The notes under the pieces are model-generated. The model made no database searches, was not told where the DNA came from, and was given only the letters and a program-made list of their open reading frames with translations. The position numbers and the translations under genes were made by a program. A DNA stretch of 41,710 nt. Source: a virus. Below, one piece after another: positions 1 to 41,710 of this stretch. Within the stretch, counting starts at the first letter, position 1. Every line of letters begins with the position of its first letter. The DNA lies in the IMG/VR virus record IMGVR_UViG_3300033170_000005; one strand, written 5' to 3'.

Positions 1-127
1 ATCACGCCGTTTGGCGAACTTTCCGAGGGCGAGCGGTGGGCCTTGGCGCTGCGAATCGCGGCCGAGCAGGTCGGCGAGCACGGGCTGATCGTTGTGCCGC
101 AAGAGGCGTGGGAAGGGCTCGACGCGG
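1..127. repeat. Terminal direct repeat, copy 1 (identical to 41584..41710); marks circular closure of the contig
   Basis: Nt 1..127 (atcacgccgtttggcg...ctcgacgcgg) match the last 127 nt of the window base for base. Confidence 0.97.
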
Positions 128-231
128 ACAATCGGACGGCGATCGACACGCTGGCCCGGGAGTTGCGGGTCGTGGTGTTGACGGCGGAGGCGTACCGGCC
201 GGGCGCGACGCCCGAGAAAGTGACGGTGTGA
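1..231 (+). CDS. 3' part of the junction-spanning ORF that starts at 41446; small protein with only the signature/Walker-B lobe of a Rad50/SbcC/RecF-type ATPase
   Basis: Frame 1 is open from position 1 to the TGA at 229..231 and continues the frame-1 ORF at the window end. The translation is ITPFGELSEGERWALALRIAAEQVGEHGLIVVPQEAWEGLDADN. It has an LSxGE signature-like motif and, about 20 aa later, hhhh-QE-xxx-LD in the Walker B/D-loop position. Confidence 0.5.
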   Translation: MTPFGELSEGERWALALRIAAEQVGEHGLIVVPQEAWEGLDADNRTAIDTLARELRVVVLTAEAYRPGATPEKVTV

Positions 232-251
232 CATGAAAAAAGACCACGGCG

Positions 252-452
252 GTGATGACGGATGGGACGTACTCAAGGGGGCTATTGCTCGACTCGAAGA
301 CCTGGTTGGAAGGGAGGGCAGCCGCCATGACTGACCCAATCCCCTGCCCATGGTGCAAGCGGTTGTTCGACGATTCGCCCGATGAGGGCGGTGATTTCTC
401 TGACCGCAACCCGGCGGTCAGGCTGGAGCGTGAGGAGAGGCGGAAGCAATAG
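252..452 (+). CDS. Small hypothetical protein (likely start ATG 327, 41 aa, one CPWC pair)
   Basis: ORF track. A GGGAGGG Shine-Dalgarno sequence lies about 8 nt upstream of ATG 327. High GC3. Confidence 0.35.
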   Translation: MMTDGTYSRGLLLDSKTWLEGRAAAMTDPIPCPWCKRLFDDSPDEGGDFSDRNPAVRLEREERRKQ

Positions 453-458
453 GAAATC

Positions 459-671
459 ATGGAAGCACGGATGCAAGAACTCACCACCATCATCCGCACG
501 GCGGACGCGGGCAGCAGCGACATGCTCGACGCGGTGGAGGAACTCTACGACCTCGACCCGGCGGCCGTGGATGACGTTCTGGCGTGGCGTGAGATGGAGT
601 TGACGAAGCGGCCGAGGCAATTGACGGTGATCGACTGGCAGGGGCCGAGGGGCACGGAATTAGATGATTGA
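459..671 (+). CDS. Hypothetical acidic protein (70 aa)
   Basis: ORF track. It is packed tightly between its neighbours, and its stop overlaps the next ORF. Confidence 0.4.
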   Translation: MEARMQELTTIIRTADAGSSDMLDAVEELYDLDPAAVDDVLAWREMELTKRPRQLTVIDWQGPRGTELDD

Positions 672-688
672 CAGCACGGAGGCACATG

Positions 689-1438
689 ATGCCAACGGAA
701 AACCAGTTATTCAATACACTATCGACCGTGTTCCAGCCTGGCCCATGGCTGTTGTTGCCGCAAGTCCGCAACACGACCGGCTACAAGCGGCGAATCCGCA
801 CGGCCGACGCTTTGGCTGTATCAATTTGGCCATCGCGCGGAATCTATTTCACTGGTGTCGAAATTAAGGTGTCGCGGTCGGACTGGCTGCGCGAACTCAA
901 GGACGTCGCGAAGTCGTCCAACATCCAGGGCTATTGTCGCCACTGGTACATTGCGACACCGCCGGAAATAGTCGTCCGCACGGAGCTTCCTCCGACATGG
1001 GGCTTGATCGAATGCCGGGAAAAGACGGCGAAAATAGTCGTTCAAGCACCGCCTCTTGAGCCAGTTGCGCCGGGCGTGGACTTCGTGGCGGCGGTTTTAC
1101 GGGCCGCAACCAAGGCGATGGTGCCGCGCAATTCGACCACTGAATGGAAGCATCGCGTTGCCACCGCGCGAGACGCCGGCTACGAAGCCGGAAAGCGAGA
1201 CGCGACCGAGTCTGCTTCTCGCCGCCTTACGGACCTAACGGAAGCCATCACGCTGTTCGAGGAAAGTTCTGGCGTTAAGATCGGCAGCCGATGGGACGCT
1301 GGTGATATTGGCATCGCCGTGAAGGCCGCGCTCGCGATGCCGCAATGTAACCCGGTTCCTGACCTAACTCGCACGCGAGACCGATTGCAATCATCCTTAG
1401 CGACGATCGAACGAGTGTTGACGGAAATCACGAATTGA
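689..1438 (+). CDS. PD-(D/E)XK nuclease-fold protein, MmcB-like (DUF1052-like)
   Basis: The motif ...ADALAV...GVEIKVSRSDWLRELKD...YCRHWYIATP matches the D...E-x-K core and following block that I recall for MmcB family proteins. GGAGG at 678..682 favours ATG 689 (or 686) over the TTG at 668. Confidence 0.6.
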   Translation: MPTENQLFNTLSTVFQPGPWLLLPQVRNTTGYKRRIRTADALAVSIWPSRGIYFTGVEIKVSRSDWLRELKDVAKSSNIQGYCRHWYIATPPEIVVRTELPPTWGLIECREKTAKIVVQAPPLEPVAPGVDFVAAVLRAATKAMVPRNSTTEWKHRVATARDAGYEAGKRDATESASRRLTDLTEAITLFEESSGVKIGSRWDAGDIGIAVKAALAMPQCNPVPDLTRTRDRLQSSLATIERVLTEITN

Positions 1439-1455
1439 CAGCATGGAGGCCGAAC

Positions 1456-2283
1456 ATGGCTGGTGACTACATCCTCATTGACCACGAGATTTTCGAGAAA
1501 CCCGAGGTGATGGGAATCCATGAACAGACGGGCGTGGAGATCGACCTGATTGTGGCCCGGCTGATTCGGCTCTGGAGACTAGCCGATCGACAGACCATCG
1601 ACGGCTTCATTCCGTTCGCGGGTCCGCGTGCCCTGGCTCAGCAATGTGGTGGCGACGAGGCCCTCTGGCTTGCTGTTGTCAAGGTCGGTTGGCTTGTGCT
1701 GGACGAACGCGGCGCGACGATACCCCACTTCTCGGAGCGGTTCGGGGAGTCCGCCAGAAAGAGGATGAAGGCAGCGATTAAGAAGGCGAACCAACGGAAA
1801 GACAAGGGACGCAGCCGGGGACACGAACGGGGACAGCAAGGGGACAAGATGGGGACAGGACAAGGGACGGGACCGGGACACGACGAGGGACCGGAAGGGG
1901 TACTGTCCCCGCCTATCAAACATCATGTATCAGTATCAAGTGTTGACCATAAAGAGATTGTTTCCTTGCTTGAAGGCAAGAATAACGCTAATGGTTGCGC
2001 TACCAAGGGCGACGGCCGGGCCACCGCAGCCCGCCTATTCCGGGGGCATCTCCAGTACGCCGAGACAGACCGGCCGTTTCTGCTCGGCGTGGCCCGGCTG
2101 CTCAACGAGGGGCTGATCTCCGAGGACGCGGTGATCGACGCGATCGAGGCCGTCAAGCGGTCGACCAAGCCGATCGCGAACCCGGTCGGGTATTTTCGCA
2201 AGGTGCTCCGCGAGAACGTGGCGGCCGACTGTGGCGATCTCGACGAACTGTTGGCTCAAACCAAGCGTGAGGTCGTGGCATGA
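1456..2283 (+). CDS. Hypothetical protein, possibly a replication organiser (DnaD/YdaU-like), with a Gly/Gln/Lys-rich linker
   Basis: ORF 1435..2283. GGAGG at 1445..1449 is 6 nt upstream of ATG 1456. The position next to nuclease and RusA genes fits a replication role. The C-terminal ...NPVGYFRKVLRENV resembles replication-organiser C-termini. The function is weakly supported. Confidence 0.55.
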   Translation: MAGDYILIDHEIFEKPEVMGIHEQTGVEIDLIVARLIRLWRLADRQTIDGFIPFAGPRALAQQCGGDEALWLAVVKVGWLVLDERGATIPHFSERFGESARKRMKAAIKKANQRKDKGRSRGHERGQQGDKMGTGQGTGPGHDEGPEGVLSPPIKHHVSVSSVDHKEIVSLLEGKNNANGCATKGDGRATAARLFRGHLQYAETDRPFLLGVARLLNEGLISEDAVIDAIEAVKRSTKPIANPVGYFRKVLRENVAADCGDLDELLAQTKREVVA

Positions 2284-2423
2284 TACGCGAAGGCCCACCC
2301 CGCCGATTCGTGCCGGTGTTCCACCGTGGCAAACTCGGCCACATCGGTGGCCCGACGACATGGATCGAGACGGACGACGAGCGAGTGAATCAAATTGAAA
2401 TCGACGTGAGGGAAGGATTAACC

Positions 2424-3110
2424 ATGGGTAACTCCGTAACCGAACAACTCCGACGCATGGGCTGGAGCGAGGAGATGATCGCTCGCGCGAGGATAAACGG
2501 CAAGCCGGTGGCCGCGACGTGCCGGCCAGGTGCCGCGCTGCGTAGCATCACGTTCAGCGTACTCGGAGAACCCGTGGCCCGGCCACGCGAGCGAGCGCGG
2601 ATCGTCGGCAAGCCGGGCGGCAAGCAGTTCATTCAGCACTACACGCCGGCCAAGCATCCCGTGAACGCCTACAAGGCCGCGATCCAAGCCGCCTATCGGG
2701 AGGCTTCCCAGTGCGGCGCGCTGGACATCGGCGACGACGACGCCGTGACGCTGGAGGTGTGGTGCATCTTCCACCGCCCGGCGTGCATCACACGCAAAAC
2801 CCTGCCAAACCCAGCGCGGCGACATCGCGCCAAACCGGACGCCGACAACGTGGCGAAGTCGGTGATGGATGCGCTCAATGAGTTGGCGTGGCCCGACGAC
2901 GCGGTTGTGTCTGACCAGCGCCTCCACAAGCGCGTCGCCGCCGGCGGGCAACTCCCCCAAACCATCATCCGAATCACCGTGGAGTCGATCCATGACGTTG
3001 ACGACAAGCTACCTGCTGCGATGCAACAGGTGCAATCAAACCCGGGTAACCGTCGGTTCGTGCGAAAACTGCGGAAGCCCGGAATACTCCCTAATCGAAA
3101 GGAATCCTGA
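2424..3110 (+). CDS. rusA: RusA-family Holliday junction resolvase with a C-terminal extension
   Basis: KPDADNVAKSVMDALNELAWPDDAVVSDQRLHK matches the RusA catalytic block (compare E. coli RusA DLDNLQKAAFDAL...DDAQV). ATG 2424 has a GAGGGAAGGA ribosome-binding site. An upstream ATG at 2280 is possible. Confidence 0.8.
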   Translation: MGNSVTEQLRRMGWSEEMIARARINGKPVAATCRPGAALRSITFSVLGEPVARPRERARIVGKPGGKQFIQHYTPAKHPVNAYKAAIQAAYREASQCGALDIGDDDAVTLEVWCIFHRPACITRKTLPNPARRHRAKPDADNVAKSVMDALNELAWPDDAVVSDQRLHKRVAAGGQLPQTIIRITVESIHDVDDKLPAAMQQVQSNPGNRRFVRKLRKPGILPNRKES

Positions 3111-3312
3111 CATGAGCGACGAGCGAGAAATGGACAACGAGAACATGGCGACGATGGAGCCGGAGCAAGAGTCGCCGTGCCAAGAGTGCGAGGCGCCGGA
3201 GACCGACACGGCCGATGTCTTCCCCGCACGTGCGGGGATGAACCGAGATCATGAAGCTGAGCGAGAAGGTTCGCGAAGTCTTCCCCGCACGTGCGGGGAT
3301 GAACCGTGGTAG
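2992..3312 (+). CDS. Small zinc-ribbon (CNRC...CENC) / acidic ORF whose 3' end runs into the CRISPR mini-array
   Basis: Frame-1 ORF (track 2869..3312) with ATG 2992 and an internal ATG at 3111. GC3 is high up to the first repeat. The last ~95 nt are array sequence, so the true C-terminus is uncertain. Confidence 0.3.
   Translation: MTLTTSYLLRCNRCNQTRVTVGSCENCGSPEYSLIERNPDMSDEREMDNENMATMEPEQESPCQECEAPETDTADVFPARAGMNRDHEAEREGSRSLPRTCGDEPW
3217..3306 (+). CRISPR. Cas-less CRISPR mini-array: two identical 29-nt type I-E-like repeats flanking one 32-nt spacer
   Basis: GTCTTCCCCGCACGTGCGGGGATGAACCG occurs at 3217..3245 and 3278..3306. The spacer AGATCATGAAGCTGAGCGAGAAGGTTCGCGAA is at 3246..3277. 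Each repeat contains the perfect palindrome CCCCGCAC/GTGCGGGG and ends in ATGAACCG, versus ATAAACCG in the E. coli I-E repeat. The 29/32 geometry is canonical for I-E. Confidence 0.9.
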
Positions 3313-3406
3313 CGAGGTGTCCACGACACTGATTCTCAAGGCCGGCGAGTTTGAGTATCTCGACGCCGACGAGATCGACGCCTCGTTCACGGTGATACCG
3401 GACTGA
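3251..3406 (+). CDS. Possible 51-aa ORF that starts inside the spacer and reads through repeat 2
   Basis: My own translation: ATG 3251 ... TGA 3404..3406 gives MKLSEKVREVFPARAGMNRGSEVSTTLILKAGEFEYLDADEIDASFTVIPD. It is too short for the ORF track and may be fortuitous. Confidence 0.2.
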   Translation: MKLSEKVREVFPARAGMNRGSEVSTTLILKAGEFEYLDADEIDASFTVIPD

Positions 3407-3604
3407 CCACGACGCGGGCATGGCCGCCCGAACCATCGCACCGGCTGGCCACACGGGCCGGGGCTTTAACCGAATGAGGTGAAAAATGAAAGACCTATTG
3501 AAACAAGCCCACCAACACCTGATCGACGCGGACTGACACCCTCGAACCCGAAAACCAAGCGGAGCTTTTCACGGAATGACAACCAGAAATTCACGGAGTG
3601 AACC

Positions 3605-4003
3605 ATGGCCAGAACGGAATCCTGCCGATCGTATCTTCTCCCCAACGAGTACCAGCTGCTATCCGAGCCGAATCGCCAGCGCGTAACCGACGTGCTGTGT
3701 TTTTTCAAGCAGGGCGTCCCGCTGGCCGAACTTGCGGCCATGACGTGTTGCGATCCCGACGAGGCGCGGCGGATCATCGCCGACCATGTCGCGGCCGAAG
3801 CCGCCGGACGAGGCGTGCTGCTGATGGGTGCCGCCTGGCTGCCCACGACAGCCGAAATTGCGGGAGAGGCCAAGCGACTCACAAACGCACACCTCGCAGA
3901 GGCCGCCGGCAAAAGCGTCGGCCCGCGCGAGGTTCGACCGCGCGGCAATGTCCGCGTCTCCCTCGGCCACCGTCGCGCCGGAAAATTACCGAATAGCCCA
4001 TGA
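3605..4003 (+). CDS. Hypothetical protein, possible HTH regulator
   Basis: GGAG lies 7 nt upstream of ATG 3605. GC3 is high in this frame. The segment GVPLAELAAMTCCDPDEARRIIADH looks like a helix-turn-helix. TTCAC-type motifs flank the gene on both sides. Confidence 0.5.
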   Translation: MARTESCRSYLLPNEYQLLSEPNRQRVTDVLCFFKQGVPLAELAAMTCCDPDEARRIIADHVAAEAAGRGVLLMGAAWLPTTAEIAGEAKRLTNAHLAEAAGKSVGPREVRPRGNVRVSLGHRRAGKLPNSP

Positions 4004-4096
4004 TGGGGATATTCCTTCACGGTTTGGTGTGCAATCCTACGCGCTGTTGAGGTCGCACACCCGTTTCACCATTTCACTGTTTCACGCGAGAAAATT

Positions 4097-4564
4097 ATGA
4101 GTACCGAGACTCCCCTGCCCGCGAACTCTCGATCCGGAATCCTGACGAATCTCTCGGCGGCCCTGAAAATCATCCGCGCGCTGGGCCCGGCCGGCAAGGA
4201 GATCCTGGACTGCGTCCCGTTGCCCGACTGGCGCGACCGCGACGCCGTGCAACGATGGGCGATTCAGGTGATCGAGGTCGCCCAGGCCCTGGCCAAGCTC
4301 ACGCCGACGACGATCGACGACGCGGCCGCGCTGGCCGTCCGTCGCGTGCTCGAGGATTCGACCATTTGGGACGCCGTCTACCGTGAAGCGATCGGCGACG
4401 AGGCCATGGAGTCGGCCGCCGCGGCCGTGCCCGTTGGGTGGCGTGATCGCGTGGCGACGTGCTACGGCGACGACGCGGCCGACGATGCGAAAATCGACCC
4501 GCTGACCATCATCGCCATCGTCGAGGCCGTGATCGCCCTGATTAACTGGTGGCGCAATCGGTGA
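4097..4564 (+). CDS. Hypothetical protein with a C-terminal hydrophobic helix (holin-like candidate)
   Basis: ORF track. The C-terminus IDPLTIIAIVEAVIALINWWRNR looks like a membrane anchor. It is the first gene of the lysis-like block. Confidence 0.5.
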   Translation: MSTETPLPANSRSGILTNLSAALKIIRALGPAGKEILDCVPLPDWRDRDAVQRWAIQVIEVAQALAKLTPTTIDDAAALAVRRVLEDSTIWDAVYREAIGDEAMESAAAAVPVGWRDRVATCYGDDAADDAKIDPLTIIAIVEAVIALINWWRNR

Positions 4565-4674
4565 CGTGACGGATTCACCGCGGAGACATCAATCGTAAAT
4601 CGTATTCTTCGCGTCCTTTGCGATCTTCGCGGTGAGAGGTGAGACTCGTTTACCTTTTTTCCCTCGGAGGCCCC

Positions 4675-5418
4675 ATGAAACGCTCGATCCTCTCTCTGTT
4701 GTTGGTCGTCGGCATCGCGACGGCCGCGTGGGCCGCCGGGCCGGCCGTATCGATCGACGGGCCGGCCGACTCGTTGCCCGGCGATCTGGTCATTCTGCGA
4801 GCCGTCGCGCCGGAGGGCGCGGCGGTCGTCTGGCTGATTCGGCCGGCCGAGGCCGCGCCGCGATTTATTGTGCTCGAAAACGGTCGCGTGGCCATTTTCG
4901 CGAGCCGCACGGCCGGCCGGTATGAGTTCATCCTGGCCGCGGCCATCGACAATGTGCCCGTGTTGGCCGCTCACACGCTCGACAACATCGAGCCGGAGCC
5001 GCCGCCCCCTCCACCGCCCCCGCCTCCACCGCCGGAGCCTAATCCCTACGACGTGCCGACGGCCGAGCTACAGGCCGCCGTGGCCCCGGTGACGGCCGCG
5101 CTGGCTGAATCGCGCGAATCGGAGGGCGCAGTCGCAAATTTTCGTCGAGTCGCCGGCGTGTTTTCCCGGGCCTCGTCGATCGTCGTCGCCGGTGGCGCCG
5201 ATGATGTCGCCGGCATCCGCCGATCGATCGTCGAACAGGGTAAGGCTGAATTCGGCGATACAATTCTAGGCCACTACCCGGCCGCGTCGCCGGCGATCGA
5301 GGCCGTGCTCAAATCGCGGATCGGCCTGGAGAATCTGCAACTCTCGCCCGAACGCCGGGCCACCGCCGCCGCCACACTCTCGGCGATTGCGTGGGCCGCA
5401 TGGGAGGCCAGCCGATGA
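4675..5418 (+). CDS. Secreted protein with a signal peptide and a 12-proline linker
   Basis: GGAGG at 4666..4670 precedes ATG 4675. The N-terminus is MKRSILSLLLVVGIATAAWAAGP, and the linker is EPEPPPPPPPPPPPPEPNP. The stop overlaps the next start (ATGA). Confidence 0.65.
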   Translation: MKRSILSLLLVVGIATAAWAAGPAVSIDGPADSLPGDLVILRAVAPEGAAVVWLIRPAEAAPRFIVLENGRVAIFASRTAGRYEFILAAAIDNVPVLAAHTLDNIEPEPPPPPPPPPPPPEPNPYDVPTAELQAAVAPVTAALAESRESEGAVANFRRVAGVFSRASSIVVAGGADDVAGIRRSIVEQGKAEFGDTILGHYPAASPAIEAVLKSRIGLENLQLSPERRATAAATLSAIAWAAWEASR

Positions 5419-14767: not shown

Positions 14768-16934
14768 GGACGACCTGCAAAAACTTCGCGACCTGAAAAA
14801 GAAAATCAGGCTCGCCGAGAAACTCGCCAAGGGGAACGTGGACCCGGCCCGCGCCCATAGCGACCTCATGGCTCGCAAGTCGCGCGAGCAGTACGCGGCC
14901 CTCTCTGATATCGGCGAATTGCCTGCAATCGTCAACCCTGAGCGGCGCGCCAGATGCGAGGCGAGTCTATTCGAGTTTCTCACGACGTACTTTCCGCAGA
15001 CGACCGGGCTCGCTCCATTTTCCGACGACCACCGCCGCGTCATCGAGTCCATTCAATCAATCGTGCTACGCGGAGGCAGGCTCGCCAACGTGGTCTATCG
15101 TGAGTTCGCCAAGACGGTCATTGCCGAGAATACGATACTGTGGGCGATTCTCAACGGGCATAAGCAGTTCGCCGTCATGGCCGGTATCTCGAAAGACGCC
15201 ATCGCGCATAGCATGGCAAGCATCAAGGCCGAATTGTCGGACAATGAATTGCTCGCCGAAGACTACCCCGAGGCGTGCTATCCGATAGCCTCGCTCGACG
15301 GAAAGCCACAGCGTGCTGCGAGTCAGACTGTTTGCGGAGCCCACACCAACATAGTCTGGCAGGCGGAACTGATAGTATTGCCAACCGTTGACGTGAAGTG
15401 GGCGAAGTGCTGTGGCGCGGCCATTCAAGTCAAGCCGTTCACGAAGCCTCGCGGCGTCGGCTACAAGAATAAGAAAACCGGAAAAAAGGTCCGGCCCGAT
15501 TTCGTTCTGATCGACGACCCGCAAGACGAAGACAGCGCGGTCAGCCCTCTACAAGTCGAAAAGAATCTGCGCATTCTGAAGCGTAGTTGGCTTCATTCCG
15601 CCGGTCATAAAAAAGCGTTTTCCGTGATCGTCAACGGAACCGTCATGGCCCGCCAAGACATGATGGAAAAGCTGCTCGACGATTCCGCATGGGAGGGCCA
15701 CCGTATAGCGTTCGTAAAGTCGTGGTCGAAAGCCCATGATACGTTCTGGCTGAAAGACTACGCGGCGGTTCGTCGTGGCTATGACAAGGAGATACACGGA
15801 GATAGGGAGCGGGCACATAGGCAGGCCACCGCGATGTATCTCGAACGACGCGGCGAGGCCGACGAAGGGTGTGAGATATCCTGGGAGTATCGCTACACGG
15901 AACCGGCTGAAGTCTCTGCGATTCAGCACATCTACAACGTGCTGATAGACGATGGGCTCGACGTGGTATCGACCGAATACCAGAACGAGCCGCTAAATGC
16001 CGAAACAAAATTCAAGCTGACCGCCGTGTGGATAGCCTCTAAAACGAACAACCTGGCACGCGGTATCGTGCCGAAGGAAGCGGAGTTCATTTCATGCCAC
16101 ATCGACGTTCACTTGAGGGTTTTGTATTATACCGTCTGCTCGTGGTCAAAACTATTCGACGGTTCGGTGATCGACTACGGGACTTATCCAAGGCAGCCCG
16201 TGTCGTACTTCGCGGAGAGCAATTCACCGATCGCCATGGCCGACATGCTGCCCGGATCGGATGAAGACGCTTGGATTGTTGCAGGACTGCGGAGCCTTAC
16301 CGATCAGCTATTCGCCGCACAGTATCGCCGCGAAGATGGAGCCGATCTTCGCATGGGCATGATTCTCATTGACGCTCGCTGGGGCGAAAAAAACGCCCTG
16401 GTCAAGCAGTTCGTGCGGCGACATCCCGAGTCCGGCGTCCGGCTTATGTCGGCGCAGGGCTACGGCATCGGACCTGCCCAAAAAACATTCGACGAGTACG
16501 AGCCAGAGCCTGGCACGCGAACGGGACTCGGCTGGCGAATCGGCAAGCCAATCAGCGGCGACCGATGGGTCACCGTGGACGTGAACTGGTGGAAGTCATG
16601 CGTTGCGGCACGGCTCGCCTTGCCAGTTGGCACGCCCGGCGGCATCGAGCTATTCGGCGTCGATCCTCGCGAGCACTCGCTGTTCGCCGACCACTGCGTA
16701 TCGGAAGCTCCCGTCGAGACGACCGCCAAGGGCCGGACTCGCGACGTGTGGGAGTGGCTCATGCCGCACAGCGATAACCACTACTGGGATAACCTGGTCG
16801 GATGTGCGGTCGGCGCGTCGATGCTCGGCGCGCAGTTCCCGGAGATTGCGAGCAAGGGATATCGACCGAAGGGGCGAAGCTCGACACGGCTGACCGCCGC
16901 TCAACTCGCGGCGCTGGCGGGGAGGAGGGTCTGA
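14730..16934 (+). CDS. terL: Terminase large subunit, lambda GpA family
   Basis: The product is 734 aa. ...FVLIDDPQDED looks like Walker B. The C-terminal nuclease region HSDNHYWDNLVGCAVGA resembles GpA-type terminases, and it sits ahead of gpW-like and lambda-type portal genes. ATG 14730 lies inside the terminator stem, so the real start may be downstream (for example ATG 14868). Confidence 0.8.
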   Translation: MRGPHPLRGLFVLDDLQKLRDLKKKIRLAEKLAKGNVDPARAHSDLMARKSREQYAALSDIGELPAIVNPERRARCEASLFEFLTTYFPQTTGLAPFSDDHRRVIESIQSIVLRGGRLANVVYREFAKTVIAENTILWAILNGHKQFAVMAGISKDAIAHSMASIKAELSDNELLAEDYPEACYPIASLDGKPQRAASQTVCGAHTNIVWQAELIVLPTVDVKWAKCCGAAIQVKPFTKPRGVGYKNKKTGKKVRPDFVLIDDPQDEDSAVSPLQVEKNLRILKRSWLHSAGHKKAFSVIVNGTVMARQDMMEKLLDDSAWEGHRIAFVKSWSKAHDTFWLKDYAAVRRGYDKEIHGDRERAHRQATAMYLERRGEADEGCEISWEYRYTEPAEVSAIQHIYNVLIDDGLDVVSTEYQNEPLNAETKFKLTAVWIASKTNNLARGIVPKEAEFISCHIDVHLRVLYYTVCSWSKLFDGSVIDYGTYPRQPVSYFAESNSPIAMADMLPGSDEDAWIVAGLRSLTDQLFAAQYRREDGADLRMGMILIDARWGEKNALVKQFVRRHPESGVRLMSAQGYGIGPAQKTFDEYEPEPGTRTGLGWRIGKPISGDRWVTVDVNWWKSCVAARLALPVGTPGGIELFGVDPREHSLFADHCVSEAPVETTAKGRTRDVWEWLMPHSDNHYWDNLVGCAVGASMLGAQFPEIASKGYRPKGRSSTRLTAAQLAALAGRRV

Positions 16935-36494: not shown

Positions 36495-36553
36495 GCCCCC
36501 GCGTCGCGTTTGCCAATTTTCGCATGGATGCGGCGCGGCGTGGGGGCTTTTTT
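36495..36553 (+). terminator. Terminator-like hairpin C (14-bp stem, T6), 18 nt upstream of the ParB-paralog start
   Basis: gcccccgcgtcgcg(36495..36508) pairs with cgcggcgtgggggc(36534..36547), including two G-U pairs, and is followed by TTTTTT. Confidence 0.6.
36521..36540 (+). repeat. 20-nt exact repeat cgcatggatgcggcgcggcg, copy 1 (copy 2 at 37148..37167); boundary of the ParB-paralog duplication
   Basis: Identical 20-mers lie 32 nt and 28 nt upstream of the two paralog start codons, and similar sequence follows each copy. Confidence 0.8.
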
Positions 36554-36571
36554 ATTCAAACGGAGAAACCC

Positions 36572-37207
36572 ATGATGGAACTGACTATTGACCCGGAGTT
36601 CGAGGGACTATGTCCCGCGTTGACGCCAGAAGAATTCAACCTGCTCGAACAGAGTATTATCGACGAAGGGTGCCGTGACCCGATTGTCGTCTGGGCGAAC
36701 CACGCCGACACGATTCTCGACGGCCACAACCGCTACCAGATTTGCACGCGGTGGGACAAGCCGTTCAAGACGAAGGCTCTCAAACTGGCCACCCGCGACG
36801 ATTCCGTCAACTGGATCATCGCCAACCAGCTCGGCCGGCGGAATCTGACGGAGTCGCAGAAGTCATACCTTCGCGGGAAGCGATATCAGGCGGAGAAGAA
36901 GGCCCATGGTGATCGTGGCCCTGAAAAGACTGCCCAAAATGGGCAATCTTTTTCTGGAACCGCCGAACGTCTCGGCGAAGAGTACAGCGTAAGCAAGAAC
37001 ACCATCCGCCGCGATGCGGAGTTCGCCGACGCCGTCGACAAGATCGAAAAAACGTCAGGGCCGGAGGCGAAAGCGGCGGTCCTTTCCGGCAAGGCCCGCA
37101 AGCAAGAGGTTATCGCAGCGGCGGCTCTACCTCTCATCAAGCAGCGCCGCATGGATGCGGCGCGGCGCGAGGGTTTTCCTGAAAGGATGCACATATGCAA
37201 GAACTGA
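36572..37207 (+). CDS. ParB N-terminal domain protein, paralog 1 (DGHNR motif)
   Basis: GGAG is 6 nt upstream of ATG 36572. The sequence MMELTIDPEFEGL...IVVWANHADTILDGHNRYQICTRWDKPFKTKALK aligns colinearly with the next gene. Confidence 0.7.
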   Translation: MMELTIDPEFEGLCPALTPEEFNLLEQSIIDEGCRDPIVVWANHADTILDGHNRYQICTRWDKPFKTKALKLATRDDSVNWIIANQLGRRNLTESQKSYLRGKRYQAEKKAHGDRGPEKTAQNGQSFSGTAERLGEEYSVSKNTIRRDAEFADAVDKIEKTSGPEAKAAVLSGKARKQEVIAAAALPLIKQRRMDAARREGFPERMHICKN

Positions 37208-37965
37208 CGATCGACAAGGAATTCGAGGGTCTACTGCCACCACTTACGGCAGAGCAATTCAATCTACTGGAAACCGGGATAACCGCCCAAGGATGCTTAC
37301 AGCCAATCATCGTATGGGCGAACCACGAAGACACAATTCTTGACGGCCACAACCGCTACCGAATTTGCACCCGATTCGACATCCCATTCAAGACCAAGGC
37401 CCTCAAGTTCGAGAGCCGCGAGGACGTGATAGCCTGGATCAAGCAGCACGCTCGTGGGCAACGCAACATGACGGAAGAGCAGCTGTCCGATCTTCGCGGG
37501 GCTGAGTATGAGCGGGAGAAAAAACCGCCTGGCCACCCTCAACTTCCCCACGGTGGGGAAGTAAGTGATGGACCGACACGAAAGAAACTGGCAAAAAAAC
37601 ACGGTGTTGGGGCAAGCACGATAGACCGCGATGCCAAGTTTCACAAGGCCCTCAACACCATCGCCGAAACATGCGGGGCACCCGCCAAGGAGAAGATACT
37701 AATGGGCGAAAGCGGACTGACGAAATCCCAAGTCGTCAAGGCGGCGACGTTGCCAGCGAAGAAAATGCAAGCCGCAATCAAAAACGGCAAGTTACCAAGC
37801 GGGTCGGAAGGCCGCCCTATCGTTCGCAATCCCGTTGTTGAAGCCATGCAGTTTGCTCGCATGGCGATTGAAGACCTGAAGCGAATTACGCCGGAAGACC
37901 CGGAACGAGAAAAGGCGTTTTGTCACGTTGAAAAGTGGATTAACTCACAAAGGAGTATGTCATGA
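37195..37965 (+). CDS. ParB N-terminal domain protein, paralog 2 (DGHNR motif)
   Basis: MQELTIDKEFEGL...IIVWANHEDTILDGHNRYRICTRFDIPFKTKALK. The C-terminal halves diverge from paralog 1. Confidence 0.7.
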   Translation: MQELTIDKEFEGLLPPLTAEQFNLLETGITAQGCLQPIIVWANHEDTILDGHNRYRICTRFDIPFKTKALKFESREDVIAWIKQHARGQRNMTEEQLSDLRGAEYEREKKPPGHPQLPHGGEVSDGPTRKKLAKKHGVGASTIDRDAKFHKALNTIAETCGAPAKEKILMGESGLTKSQVVKAATLPAKKMQAAIKNGKLPSGSEGRPIVRNPVVEAMQFARMAIEDLKRITPEDPEREKAFCHVEKWINSQRSMS

Positions 37966-41445: not shown

Positions 41446-41710
41446 ATGGCGTTGCAGTCAGCCCATCGCGGCGAAAGTCTACGCAAGGACGCCGAGACGG
41501 TTGATACGGCCCTTGCCTCGCTGGTCGCCTGCCCAGACCTCTCAGTGGTCGACGGACGGCTCGTGACGGAAACCGTCCGCGGGATCACGCCGTTTGGCGA
41601 ACTTTCCGAGGGCGAGCGGTGGGCCTTGGCGCTGCGAATCGCGGCCGAGCAGGTCGGCGAGCACGGGCTGATCGTTGTGCCGCAAGAGGCGTGGGAAGGG
41701 CTCGACGCGG
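41446..41710 (+). CDS. 5' part of the junction-spanning ORF (continues at 128..231 after circularisation; about 122 aa in total)
   Basis: ATG 41446 is in frame 1, and there is no stop before the window end. The same frame continues through the repeat to TGA 229..231. Confidence 0.5.
   Translation, partial: MALQSAHRGESLRKDAETVDTALASLVACPDLSVVDGRLVTETVRGITPFGELSEGERWALALRIAAEQVGEHGLIVVPQEAWEGLDA
41584..41710. repeat. Terminal direct repeat, copy 2 (identical to 1..127)
   Basis: Direct comparison of both ends. The unit genome length is therefore 41,583 bp. Confidence 0.97.

Follow-up and report, generated by a model that had tools for sequence, protein, structure and literature searches.

We identified a CRISPR mini-array in a stretch of viral DNA of 41,710 nucleotides (nt), IMG/VR record IMGVR_UViG_3300033170_000005, which is the complete genome of a tailed phage of about 41.6 kb. 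The whole stretch is referred to as the window, and positions given without a contig name are positions in it. The mini-array consists of a first repeat (3217-3245, + strand), a spacer of 32 nt (3246-3277, + strand) and a second repeat (3278-3306, + strand). It is located within the remnant of a gene, here called gene X, between the gene encoding a RusA-like resolvase (2280-3110, + strand; Pfam RusA 1.9e-17, PHROG 140) and orf132 (3605-4003, + strand), and the spacer AGATCATGAAGCTGAGCGAGAAGGTTCGCGAA corresponds to an internal segment of gene X of the same phage lineage.

Structure of the array and the gene remnant around it

The 29-nt repeat GTCTTCCCCGCACGTGCGGGGATGAACCG belongs to the type I-E family and is one nt away from I-E repeats that are linked to cas genes. 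An exact search of the window identified exactly two copies, both perfect and on the + strand, with a start-to-start distance of 61 nt. No third copy was present in the window when up to three mismatches were allowed, and none of 100 dinucleotide shuffles gave a match. No decayed repeats were found at 61 or 122 nt to either side, and the next best match to the 29-mer in the window was 18 of 29 nt. Direct reading of the repeat confirmed a 16-nt palindrome (CCCCGCAC/GTGCGGGG), which makes up its stem and is followed by the tail ATGAACCG; the last 8 nt at the 3' side are those expected to become the 5' handle of a CRISPR RNA (crRNA). Strong folding is predicted for the array region. Based on the established position of Cas6e cleavage within I-E repeats, a crRNA of 61 nt is predicted at 3238-3298 (+ strand), composed of the 5' handle AUGAACCG (8 nt), the spacer (32 nt) and a 3' hairpin (21 nt). 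The spacer occurs once in the window, and because its best second match is only 19 of 32 nt there is no self-target.

Additional assemblies of the phage were retrieved through an exact-protein look-up of RusA and orf132. Repeats, spacer and both flanks are base-identical across six assemblies from three pipelines (ENA ERZ27252295, ERZ27252300 and ERZ27252301; Logan SRR10872647 and SRR10872584; JGI 3300033169), and the array is therefore not an assembly chimera. The I-E geometry put forward in the original prediction, two perfect 29-nt repeats around a 32-nt spacer, is thus borne out by the exact search, the shuffles and the six identical assemblies. An anaerobic digester in Wageningen is the listed source of two JGI samples (PMC10159854). 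Apart from the allele with the array, no allele was seen in the digester population. Several contigs from other assemblies end at or near the array: L028 ends at 3306, which is exactly the final base of repeat 2, L029 and L031 end at 3158 and 3193, and L034 and L035 start at 3330 and 3210, respectively. These contig ends may represent population variants at the locus or merely low coverage. A search of the whole window against Rfam at gathering thresholds gave no match, and a search of 3150-3380 with E-values up to 10 gave sub-threshold microRNA-type hairpins only and no CRISPR-DR family; we rate this Rfam result as uninformative.

The array had originally been placed between genes. It was found instead to interrupt the remnant of gene X, the missing part of which supplied the spacer. 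The N-terminal remnant (3112-3216, + strand, 35 codons; G+C at the three codon positions, GC1/2/3 = 0.63/0.40/0.86) begins one base past the stop codon of RusA and aligns with the N-termini of two gene X homologues (P0013 and P0016; MSDE...ATMEPE...PC.EC). The C-terminal remnant (3308-3406, + strand, 32 codons and a stop codon; GC1/2/3 = 0.59/0.41/0.76) includes TLILKAGEFEY, which aligns with the invariant C-terminus of the relatives (...TLIL.AGEFEY). Both array flanks have the GC1/GC2/GC3 pattern that is typical of genes of the phage. Each repeat directly adjoins gene X sequence, with no more than 3 nt unassigned, and a tblastn search of gene X against the window detected only three collinear remnants and no second copy. 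About 190 codons of gene X have thus given way to the array, and the spacer is a piece of the missing core.

The closest relative found is L037, a contig of 8.8 kb with the same gene order, RusA - gene X - orf132. The RusA proteins are 77% identical, and DNA identity is 80-81% across the regions of RusA and orf132 (81% for orf132 against L037:4505-4928). Between these two genes L037 contains an intact gene X of 275 amino acids (L037:3620-4447); in related phages this slot holds a protein of 275-284 amino acids. Three further gene X homologues of 238-284 amino acids were found, and no repeat-like sequence is present in the homologous gene of the related phages. Gene X, which sits directly after RusA in related phages, belongs to a large family of uncharacterised proteins (978 representative clusters at E <= 1e-3; homologues P0013-P0165), in which a coiled coil precedes a helix-hairpin-helix domain similar to the C-terminal domain of the RNA polymerase alpha subunit. 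Behind the gene remnant, the non-coding segment 3412-3477 is approximately 80% conserved in comparison with L037:4451-4516 and is rich in GGCC/CCGG symmetry; this segment may be a regulatory site ahead of orf132.

The spacer is identical at 28 of 32 nt to L037:3831-3862 and to L041:827-858, and 200 shuffled spacers reached at most 21 of 32. Both contigs differ from the spacer at positions 6, 10, 17 and 20 and agree with it at positions 1-5, 7 and 8, leaving the seed intact. The spacer translates as (E)IMKLSEKVRE and the relatives have EILTLSEKVRE, at residues ~70-81 of the 275-amino-acid protein, and not at the start of a gene, as the spacer had been read in the original prediction. Its strand is that on which gene X is encoded, and it is in frame, through repeat 2, with the C-terminal remnant. 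In the relatives, the corresponding segment is found about 10 codons past the end of the N-terminal remnant, which is about the length of one repeat. The divergence of the spacer from L037 (87.5% identity) is comparable to that of the flanking genes (80-81%). Spacer and remaining phage genome thus differ from L037 to about the same degree, suggesting that the source of the spacer was the intact allele of the lineage itself.

Two open reading frames (ORFs) run across the array. ORF A (3112-3312, + strand, 66 amino acids; P0001) extends from the N-terminal remnant through repeat 1, the spacer and repeat 2. It reads repeat 1 as VFPARAGMNR and repeat 2 out of phase, and is probably a by-product of the insertion. 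ORF B (3251-3406, + strand, 51 amino acids; P0002) starts with an ATG within the spacer and crosses repeat 2 in frame to end with the C-terminal remnant, reading repeat 2 in the phase in which ORF A reads repeat 1 (VFPARAGMNR). When one spacer and one repeat (61 nt; 3246-3306) are removed, ORF A and ORF B fuse into a continuous ORF of 77 amino acids in which the remaining repeat is read as VFPARAGMNR, suggesting an ancestor with a single, in-frame repeat. A protein-database search with both gene remnants identified the window's own two ORFs as the sole matches, and no spacer variants, solitary-repeat variants or intact allele of the exact lineage were found in this database.

Repeat family, cas genes and the carrier phage

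None of the 54 ORFs of the window matched a Cas family in Pfam or PADLOC, and the phage does not hold a complete type I-E system with cas genes on the same replicon. The 70 nt 5' of the array are coding sequence with 70% G+C and not an AT-rich leader. The polarity of the array is that of the surrounding early replication and recombination genes. On all three points the original prediction was correct.

To place the repeat, a 22-nt core of it was followed through genomes and found at 26 genome loci, mostly in long arrays with a 61-nt period, in which the differences from the phage repeat are confined to the first three bases. One-base variants are present in five of the contigs (L014, L015, L019, L024 and L026), including a Chromatiales metagenome-assembled genome (MAG), a Gammaproteobacteria MAG and Gluconobacter thailandicus NBRC 100600 (L014), and variants one or two nt away were found in Nitrospirota, Chromatiales, Acidobacteriota, FCPU426, Paracoccus and Gluconobacter. 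In the Chromatiales MAG (L019; CAYJMN010000052) the array repeat GTATTCCCCGCACGTGCGGGGATGAACCG is one base away from the phage repeat, and the array is located directly downstream of, and co-oriented with, genes for Cse1, Cse2, Cas7 (CT1975), Cas5, Cas6e (PF08798), Cas1 and an I-E type Cas2, with an AT-rich leader between the cas operon and the array. As this array adjoins and parallels an I-E cas operon, the subtype of the phage array is I-E and its transcribed strand is the + strand of the window. The phage array has in common with chromosomal I-E loci (L019, Escherichia coli K-12) the 29-nt repeat, the 32-nt spacer length and a GC-rich hairpin followed by an 8-nt handle (AUGAACCG in the phage and AUAAACCG in E. 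coli K-12), and differs from them in the absence of a cas operon and of an AT-rich leader and in having one spacer.

The exact 29-mer was not found in the species representatives of GTDB, in IMG/VR or in JGI metagenome contigs. The array-bearing contig L035 (JGI 3300033169, Ga0334887_1088573), which was fetched by protein look-up, was missed by the DNA scan of the metagenomes, and the negative scans of the JGI metagenome contigs are therefore not proof of absence. The search for cas-linked arrays that the original prediction had called for thus yielded a one-base variant beside a full I-E operon and not the exact 29-mer. The repeat family is found across Nitrospirota, Acidobacteriota, FCPU426, Alphaproteobacteria and Gammaproteobacteria, and the repeat alone therefore does not identify the host; the direct link to a host that had been expected from it was not obtained. 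None of the 302 spacers from the 26 related arrays matched the phage or its relatives. Single copies of the repeat family were observed in Candidatus Accumulibacter aalborgensis (L020:7247-7275) and in a Deltaproteobacteria MAG (L025, - strand, from 1348), and one other MAG has two copies merely 41 nt apart (L002, - strand, 2388 and 2429). These isolated bacterial copies may be solitary repeat units or mini-arrays.

The window carries an identical direct repeat of 127 nt at its ends (1-127 and 41584-41710), consistent with a circular or circularly permuted assembly, and the true genome is therefore about 41,583 bp. Contigs of ~41.6-41.7 kb were obtained in several assemblies, and the terminal overlap supports the earlier view that the phage genome is complete. 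The structural genes encode a lambda-type portal protein, a gpA-type terminase with a nuclease domain, a capsid protein, a cement protein and head-tail joining proteins, and the early module encodes YqaJ, RecT, a replication initiator and RusA. RusA and orf132 served as the upstream and downstream syntenic anchors of the locus. The first 8 kb of the window showed no DNA similarity to GenBank phages, and no relatives of RusA or gene X and no repeat core were found in IMG/VR; close relatives are thus lacking among GenBank phages and in IMG/VR. The terminase is only ~25% identical to the terminases of Ralstonia and Pseudomonas phages and therefore gives no clue to the host. Elsewhere in the genome, two adjacent genes (36524-37207 and 37195-37965) form a pair of diverged tandem paralogues that share a 243-nt repeat with 71% identity, and the ORF at 4639-5418 contains a run of 12 prolines and encodes a predicted secreted or membrane protein.

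Proposed function, origin and alternative explanations

Virus-borne mini-arrays without cas genes are an already known kind of element, and the array described here is a further case with an unusual and informative placement. We propose that the phage employs this type I-E mini-array, which has no cas genes, in conflict with related phages, a proposal to which we give about an even chance. Read-through transcription from the RusA operon would cover the array, after which the Cas6e protein of the host would cut behind each hairpin and free one crRNA of 61 nt (3238-3298). This crRNA would be taken up by the host Cascade, and Cascade/Cas3 would destroy co-infecting or resident relatives with an intact gene X, a matching protospacer and a permissive protospacer adjacent motif (PAM). 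The carrier itself would be spared, because the gene X core is deleted and the sole matching sequence is the spacer between the repeats, where it is flanked by the CCG of the repeat itself. As the array has no leader, it is probably static. Among the three roles that had been considered in the original prediction, the hijacking of the host Cascade against a competing phage is the one best supported, given that related phages have a gene to which the spacer is homologous.

Several observations weigh against a role in conflict between phages. The spacer search found the 28 of 32 match in related phages, and searches of viral and metagenome contigs with exact, every-sixth-base-free and wobble-degenerate patterns detected no perfect protospacer. 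The known relatives have 4-10 mismatches to the spacer, and the three nt upstream of the match are CGG or CGC. The PAM of characterised I-E systems is of the AAG type. Efficient cutting is predicted for none of the known relatives, which are thus unlikely targets. The sampled relatives are mosaics that are only ~80% identical to the phage, in contrast to the near-identical competitors in the archaeal examples discussed below. No sigma-70-like promoter was found in 1-4200, and the array is without a promoter or leader of its own. Finally, no cas-linked array with the exact repeat was found in GTDB or in JGI metagenome contigs, and the fit of the repeat with the Cas6e and Cascade of the host is therefore assumed.

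Four routes by which the array could have originated were weighed: recombination between spacer and protospacer with the array of an immunised host, repeat-repeat recombination between a host array and a solitary repeat, insertion by Cas1-Cas2 into a solitary repeat, and off-target formation of a 'neo-CRISPR'. Off-target insertion by Cas1-Cas2 was rejected, since it predicts that gene X is duplicated around a foreign spacer and here the repeat is duplicated and the middle is gene X. None of the three remaining routes accounts for all features. The absence of a leader together with the invariance of the array in every sample argues against ongoing adaptation by Cas1-Cas2 and favours a recombinational route. 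The array was probably acquired by recombination with a host array immunised against the phage lineage, rather than through Cas1-Cas2 adaptation taking place on the phage. For a spacer drawn at random from the deleted part of gene X, the observed collinearity would be expected in perhaps 1 in 60 cases, according to our rough estimate. The position of the array within the remnant of its target gene, together with the collinear spacer, points to capture through homology between spacer and protospacer, or to allele-specific exclusion or homing.

Capture through such homology could also have left a sequence without any function, which we regard as an unlikely explanation, and the foremost of the alternatives. 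The array would then be an inert scar of an event in which an ancestor with an intact gene X, targeted by a host I-E spacer derived from that gene, recombined with the host array via spacer-protospacer homology, possibly helped by the RecT and YqaJ proteins of the phage; the gene X core would have been deleted, the repeats would have replaced the PAM-side and downstream flanks, and the result would persist as a neutral sequence. Recombination between phages and arrays through spacers was reportedly observed by Varble and co-workers in 2019. An origin in situ predicts the collinearity of the spacer with the gene remnants (same strand, in frame, about 10 codons off), which would be rare under random acquisition, and the similar divergence of spacer and flanks from L037 is expected if the source was the lineage itself. 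The lack of a leader and promoter is also in line with an inert sequence. By the established rule of self and non-self discrimination in I-E systems, a repeat-derived CCG in the place of the PAM gives escape, and the swap of the PAM side would have been an escape in itself. However, escape is achieved far more simply by point mutation or plain deletion, and illegitimate recombination does not predict that both junctions lie exactly at the repeat boundaries. In addition, the two repeats have remained perfect and identical, and all six assemblies show the element as fixed, which speaks for either a recent origin or constraint. An origin as a scar would also not keep the transcript from being processed in any I-E host, and this explanation therefore concerns the origin of the array more than its function.

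We consider it improbable that the array acts as an RNA anti-CRISPR or decoy, in which abundant phage transcripts with two repeats would titrate Cas6e and Cascade subunits, or would load Cascade with a harmless guide, and so dilute the host crRNAs aimed at the phage; the identity of the spacer would be irrelevant. RNAs encoded by phages that mimic repeats (Racrs) inhibit several CRISPR types, with two I-E candidates among them, and like the phage array they are phage-encoded mimics of a host repeat (Camara-Wilpert et al., 2023; PMC10651486). It has also been proposed that viral mini-arrays, when highly transcribed, competitively exclude the spacers of the host (PMC7099407), and the perfect repeats and the position in the early operon of a replicating genome would suit such a role. 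Racrs are solitary repeats without a functional spacer, usually behind a promoter of their own and often near acr genes, whereas the phage element is a full repeat-spacer-repeat unit with a canonical 32-nt and meaningful spacer and without a promoter, and no Acr or Aca family was recognised near the array. A decoy role does not explain why the spacer derives, non-randomly, from the gene of this very locus.

Still more doubtful, in our estimation, is that the array is a homing allele, whose crRNA would steer the host Cascade/Cas3 to an intact gene X in a competitor, after which repair from the array-bearing genome would copy the array into that competitor. The array itself encodes no nuclease, and the repair would proceed via the flanking homology, aided by RecT, YqaJ and RusA of the phage. 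Judged by homology, the target is indeed the allele without the element, at the exact position of the element, and homologous arms are present on both sides (RusA and the N-terminal remnant; the C-terminal remnant and orf132). The phage encodes a full set of proteins for short-homology recombination, and the array allele is the sole allele seen in the digester population. This explanation is entirely inferential, as no intact allele with a perfect protospacer was found. Cas3 degrades long tracts and may destroy the target instead of converting it, and the fixation of the allele is equally well explained by simple exclusion or by drift. In homing endonuclease genes, too, the insertion occupies and destroys its own target site, but those elements encode their own nuclease.

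That the locus is no CRISPR array at all, and arose as a chance or protein-coding duplication of 61 nt or through mis-assembly of host CRISPR reads with a phage contig, can be set aside as effectively refuted: both repeats do lie within ORFs that read each of them as VFPARAGMNR, and Rfam offered no CRISPR family, but the duplication does not include the 32 nt between the repeats, the 29-mer is one nt away from cas-linked I-E repeats, the junctions are the same in all six assemblies with phage gene remnants on both flanks, and a duplication conserved as protein in homologous phages, the outcome that the original prediction had named as contrary to it, is ruled out by relatives that lack any repeat-like sequence.

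Relation to known mini-arrays and significance

Use in conflict between related phages, as we propose for the array, has precedents in other viruses. The Saccharolobus portogloboviruses SPV1 and SPV2 carry mini-arrays of one or two spacers without cas genes which are aimed at related viruses; the orthologous locus of the carrier is mutated or deleted, and the targets are close to the arrays (Medvedeva et al., 2019; PMC6858448). Viral mini-arrays without cas genes have more generally been described to target closely related viruses (PMC11656645), and phage mini-arrays to have non-host leaders and spacers that were probably gained by recombination (PMC7099407). The phage array resembles those of SPV1 and SPV2 in the small number of spacers, the absence of viral cas genes and the loss of the orthologous locus from the carrier. 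The arrays of SPV1 and SPV2 have archaeal, I-A-associated repeats, are intergenic, possess host-like leaders with promoters and show spacer turnover and 100% matches between co-occurring viruses, whereas the phage array belongs to a tailed virus of a bacterium, has an I-E repeat and no leader, lies within the remnant of its target gene and carries a single invariant spacer with a best known match of 28 of 32 nt.

The mini-arrays of phages and prophages described by Faure et al. (2019) are, as summarised in PMC11656645 and PMC7099407, also without cas genes, contain one or two spacers, depend on host Cas proteins and have the same repeats as their host, and their spacers match related-phage sequences similar to the homologous sequence of the carrier itself. 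The phage studied here differs in having no homologous sequence left besides the spacer and in a repeat for which none of the collections scanned gave an exact match.

We also detected an unannotated mini-array in Saccharomonospora phage PIS 136 (JX006077.1, ~15,740-15,890; L042:1497-1647), which consists of three I-E-like repeats ATCCGCCCCGCACACGCGGGGATGAACCG and two spacers with a 61-nt period. Such arrays therefore already exist in cultured tailed phages. The two arrays share 29-nt repeats of the I-E family (...CCCCGCACACGCGGGGATGAACCG), the 61-nt period and the absence of adjacent cas genes. The array of PIS 136 differs in the number of repeats and spacers, in its intergenic location, in a more AT-rich upstream region and in several positions of the repeat. 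Its first spacer had no other match among GenBank phages. In the spacer-protospacer recombination that Varble et al. are said to have described in 2019, together with the transduction of whole CRISPR-cas loci in staphylococci, the spacer is the sequence that array and phage gene have in common, as it is here.

Few viral mini-arrays without cas genes have been dissected, and the array described here is an extreme and unusually clear case, adding an example of type I-E in a bacterial tailed phage from an engineered ecosystem, the anaerobic digester. With near-identical repeats occurring in several phyla, a CRISPR repeat by itself says little about the host of a phage. At 90 nt the array is a small and fully specified construct with which capture, exclusion and homing could be tested in a type I-E system. 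If the array did act as a homing allele, it would constitute a natural phage gene drive working through the borrowed immune system of the host, and this would explain why the targets of mini-arrays in other viruses adjoin the arrays.

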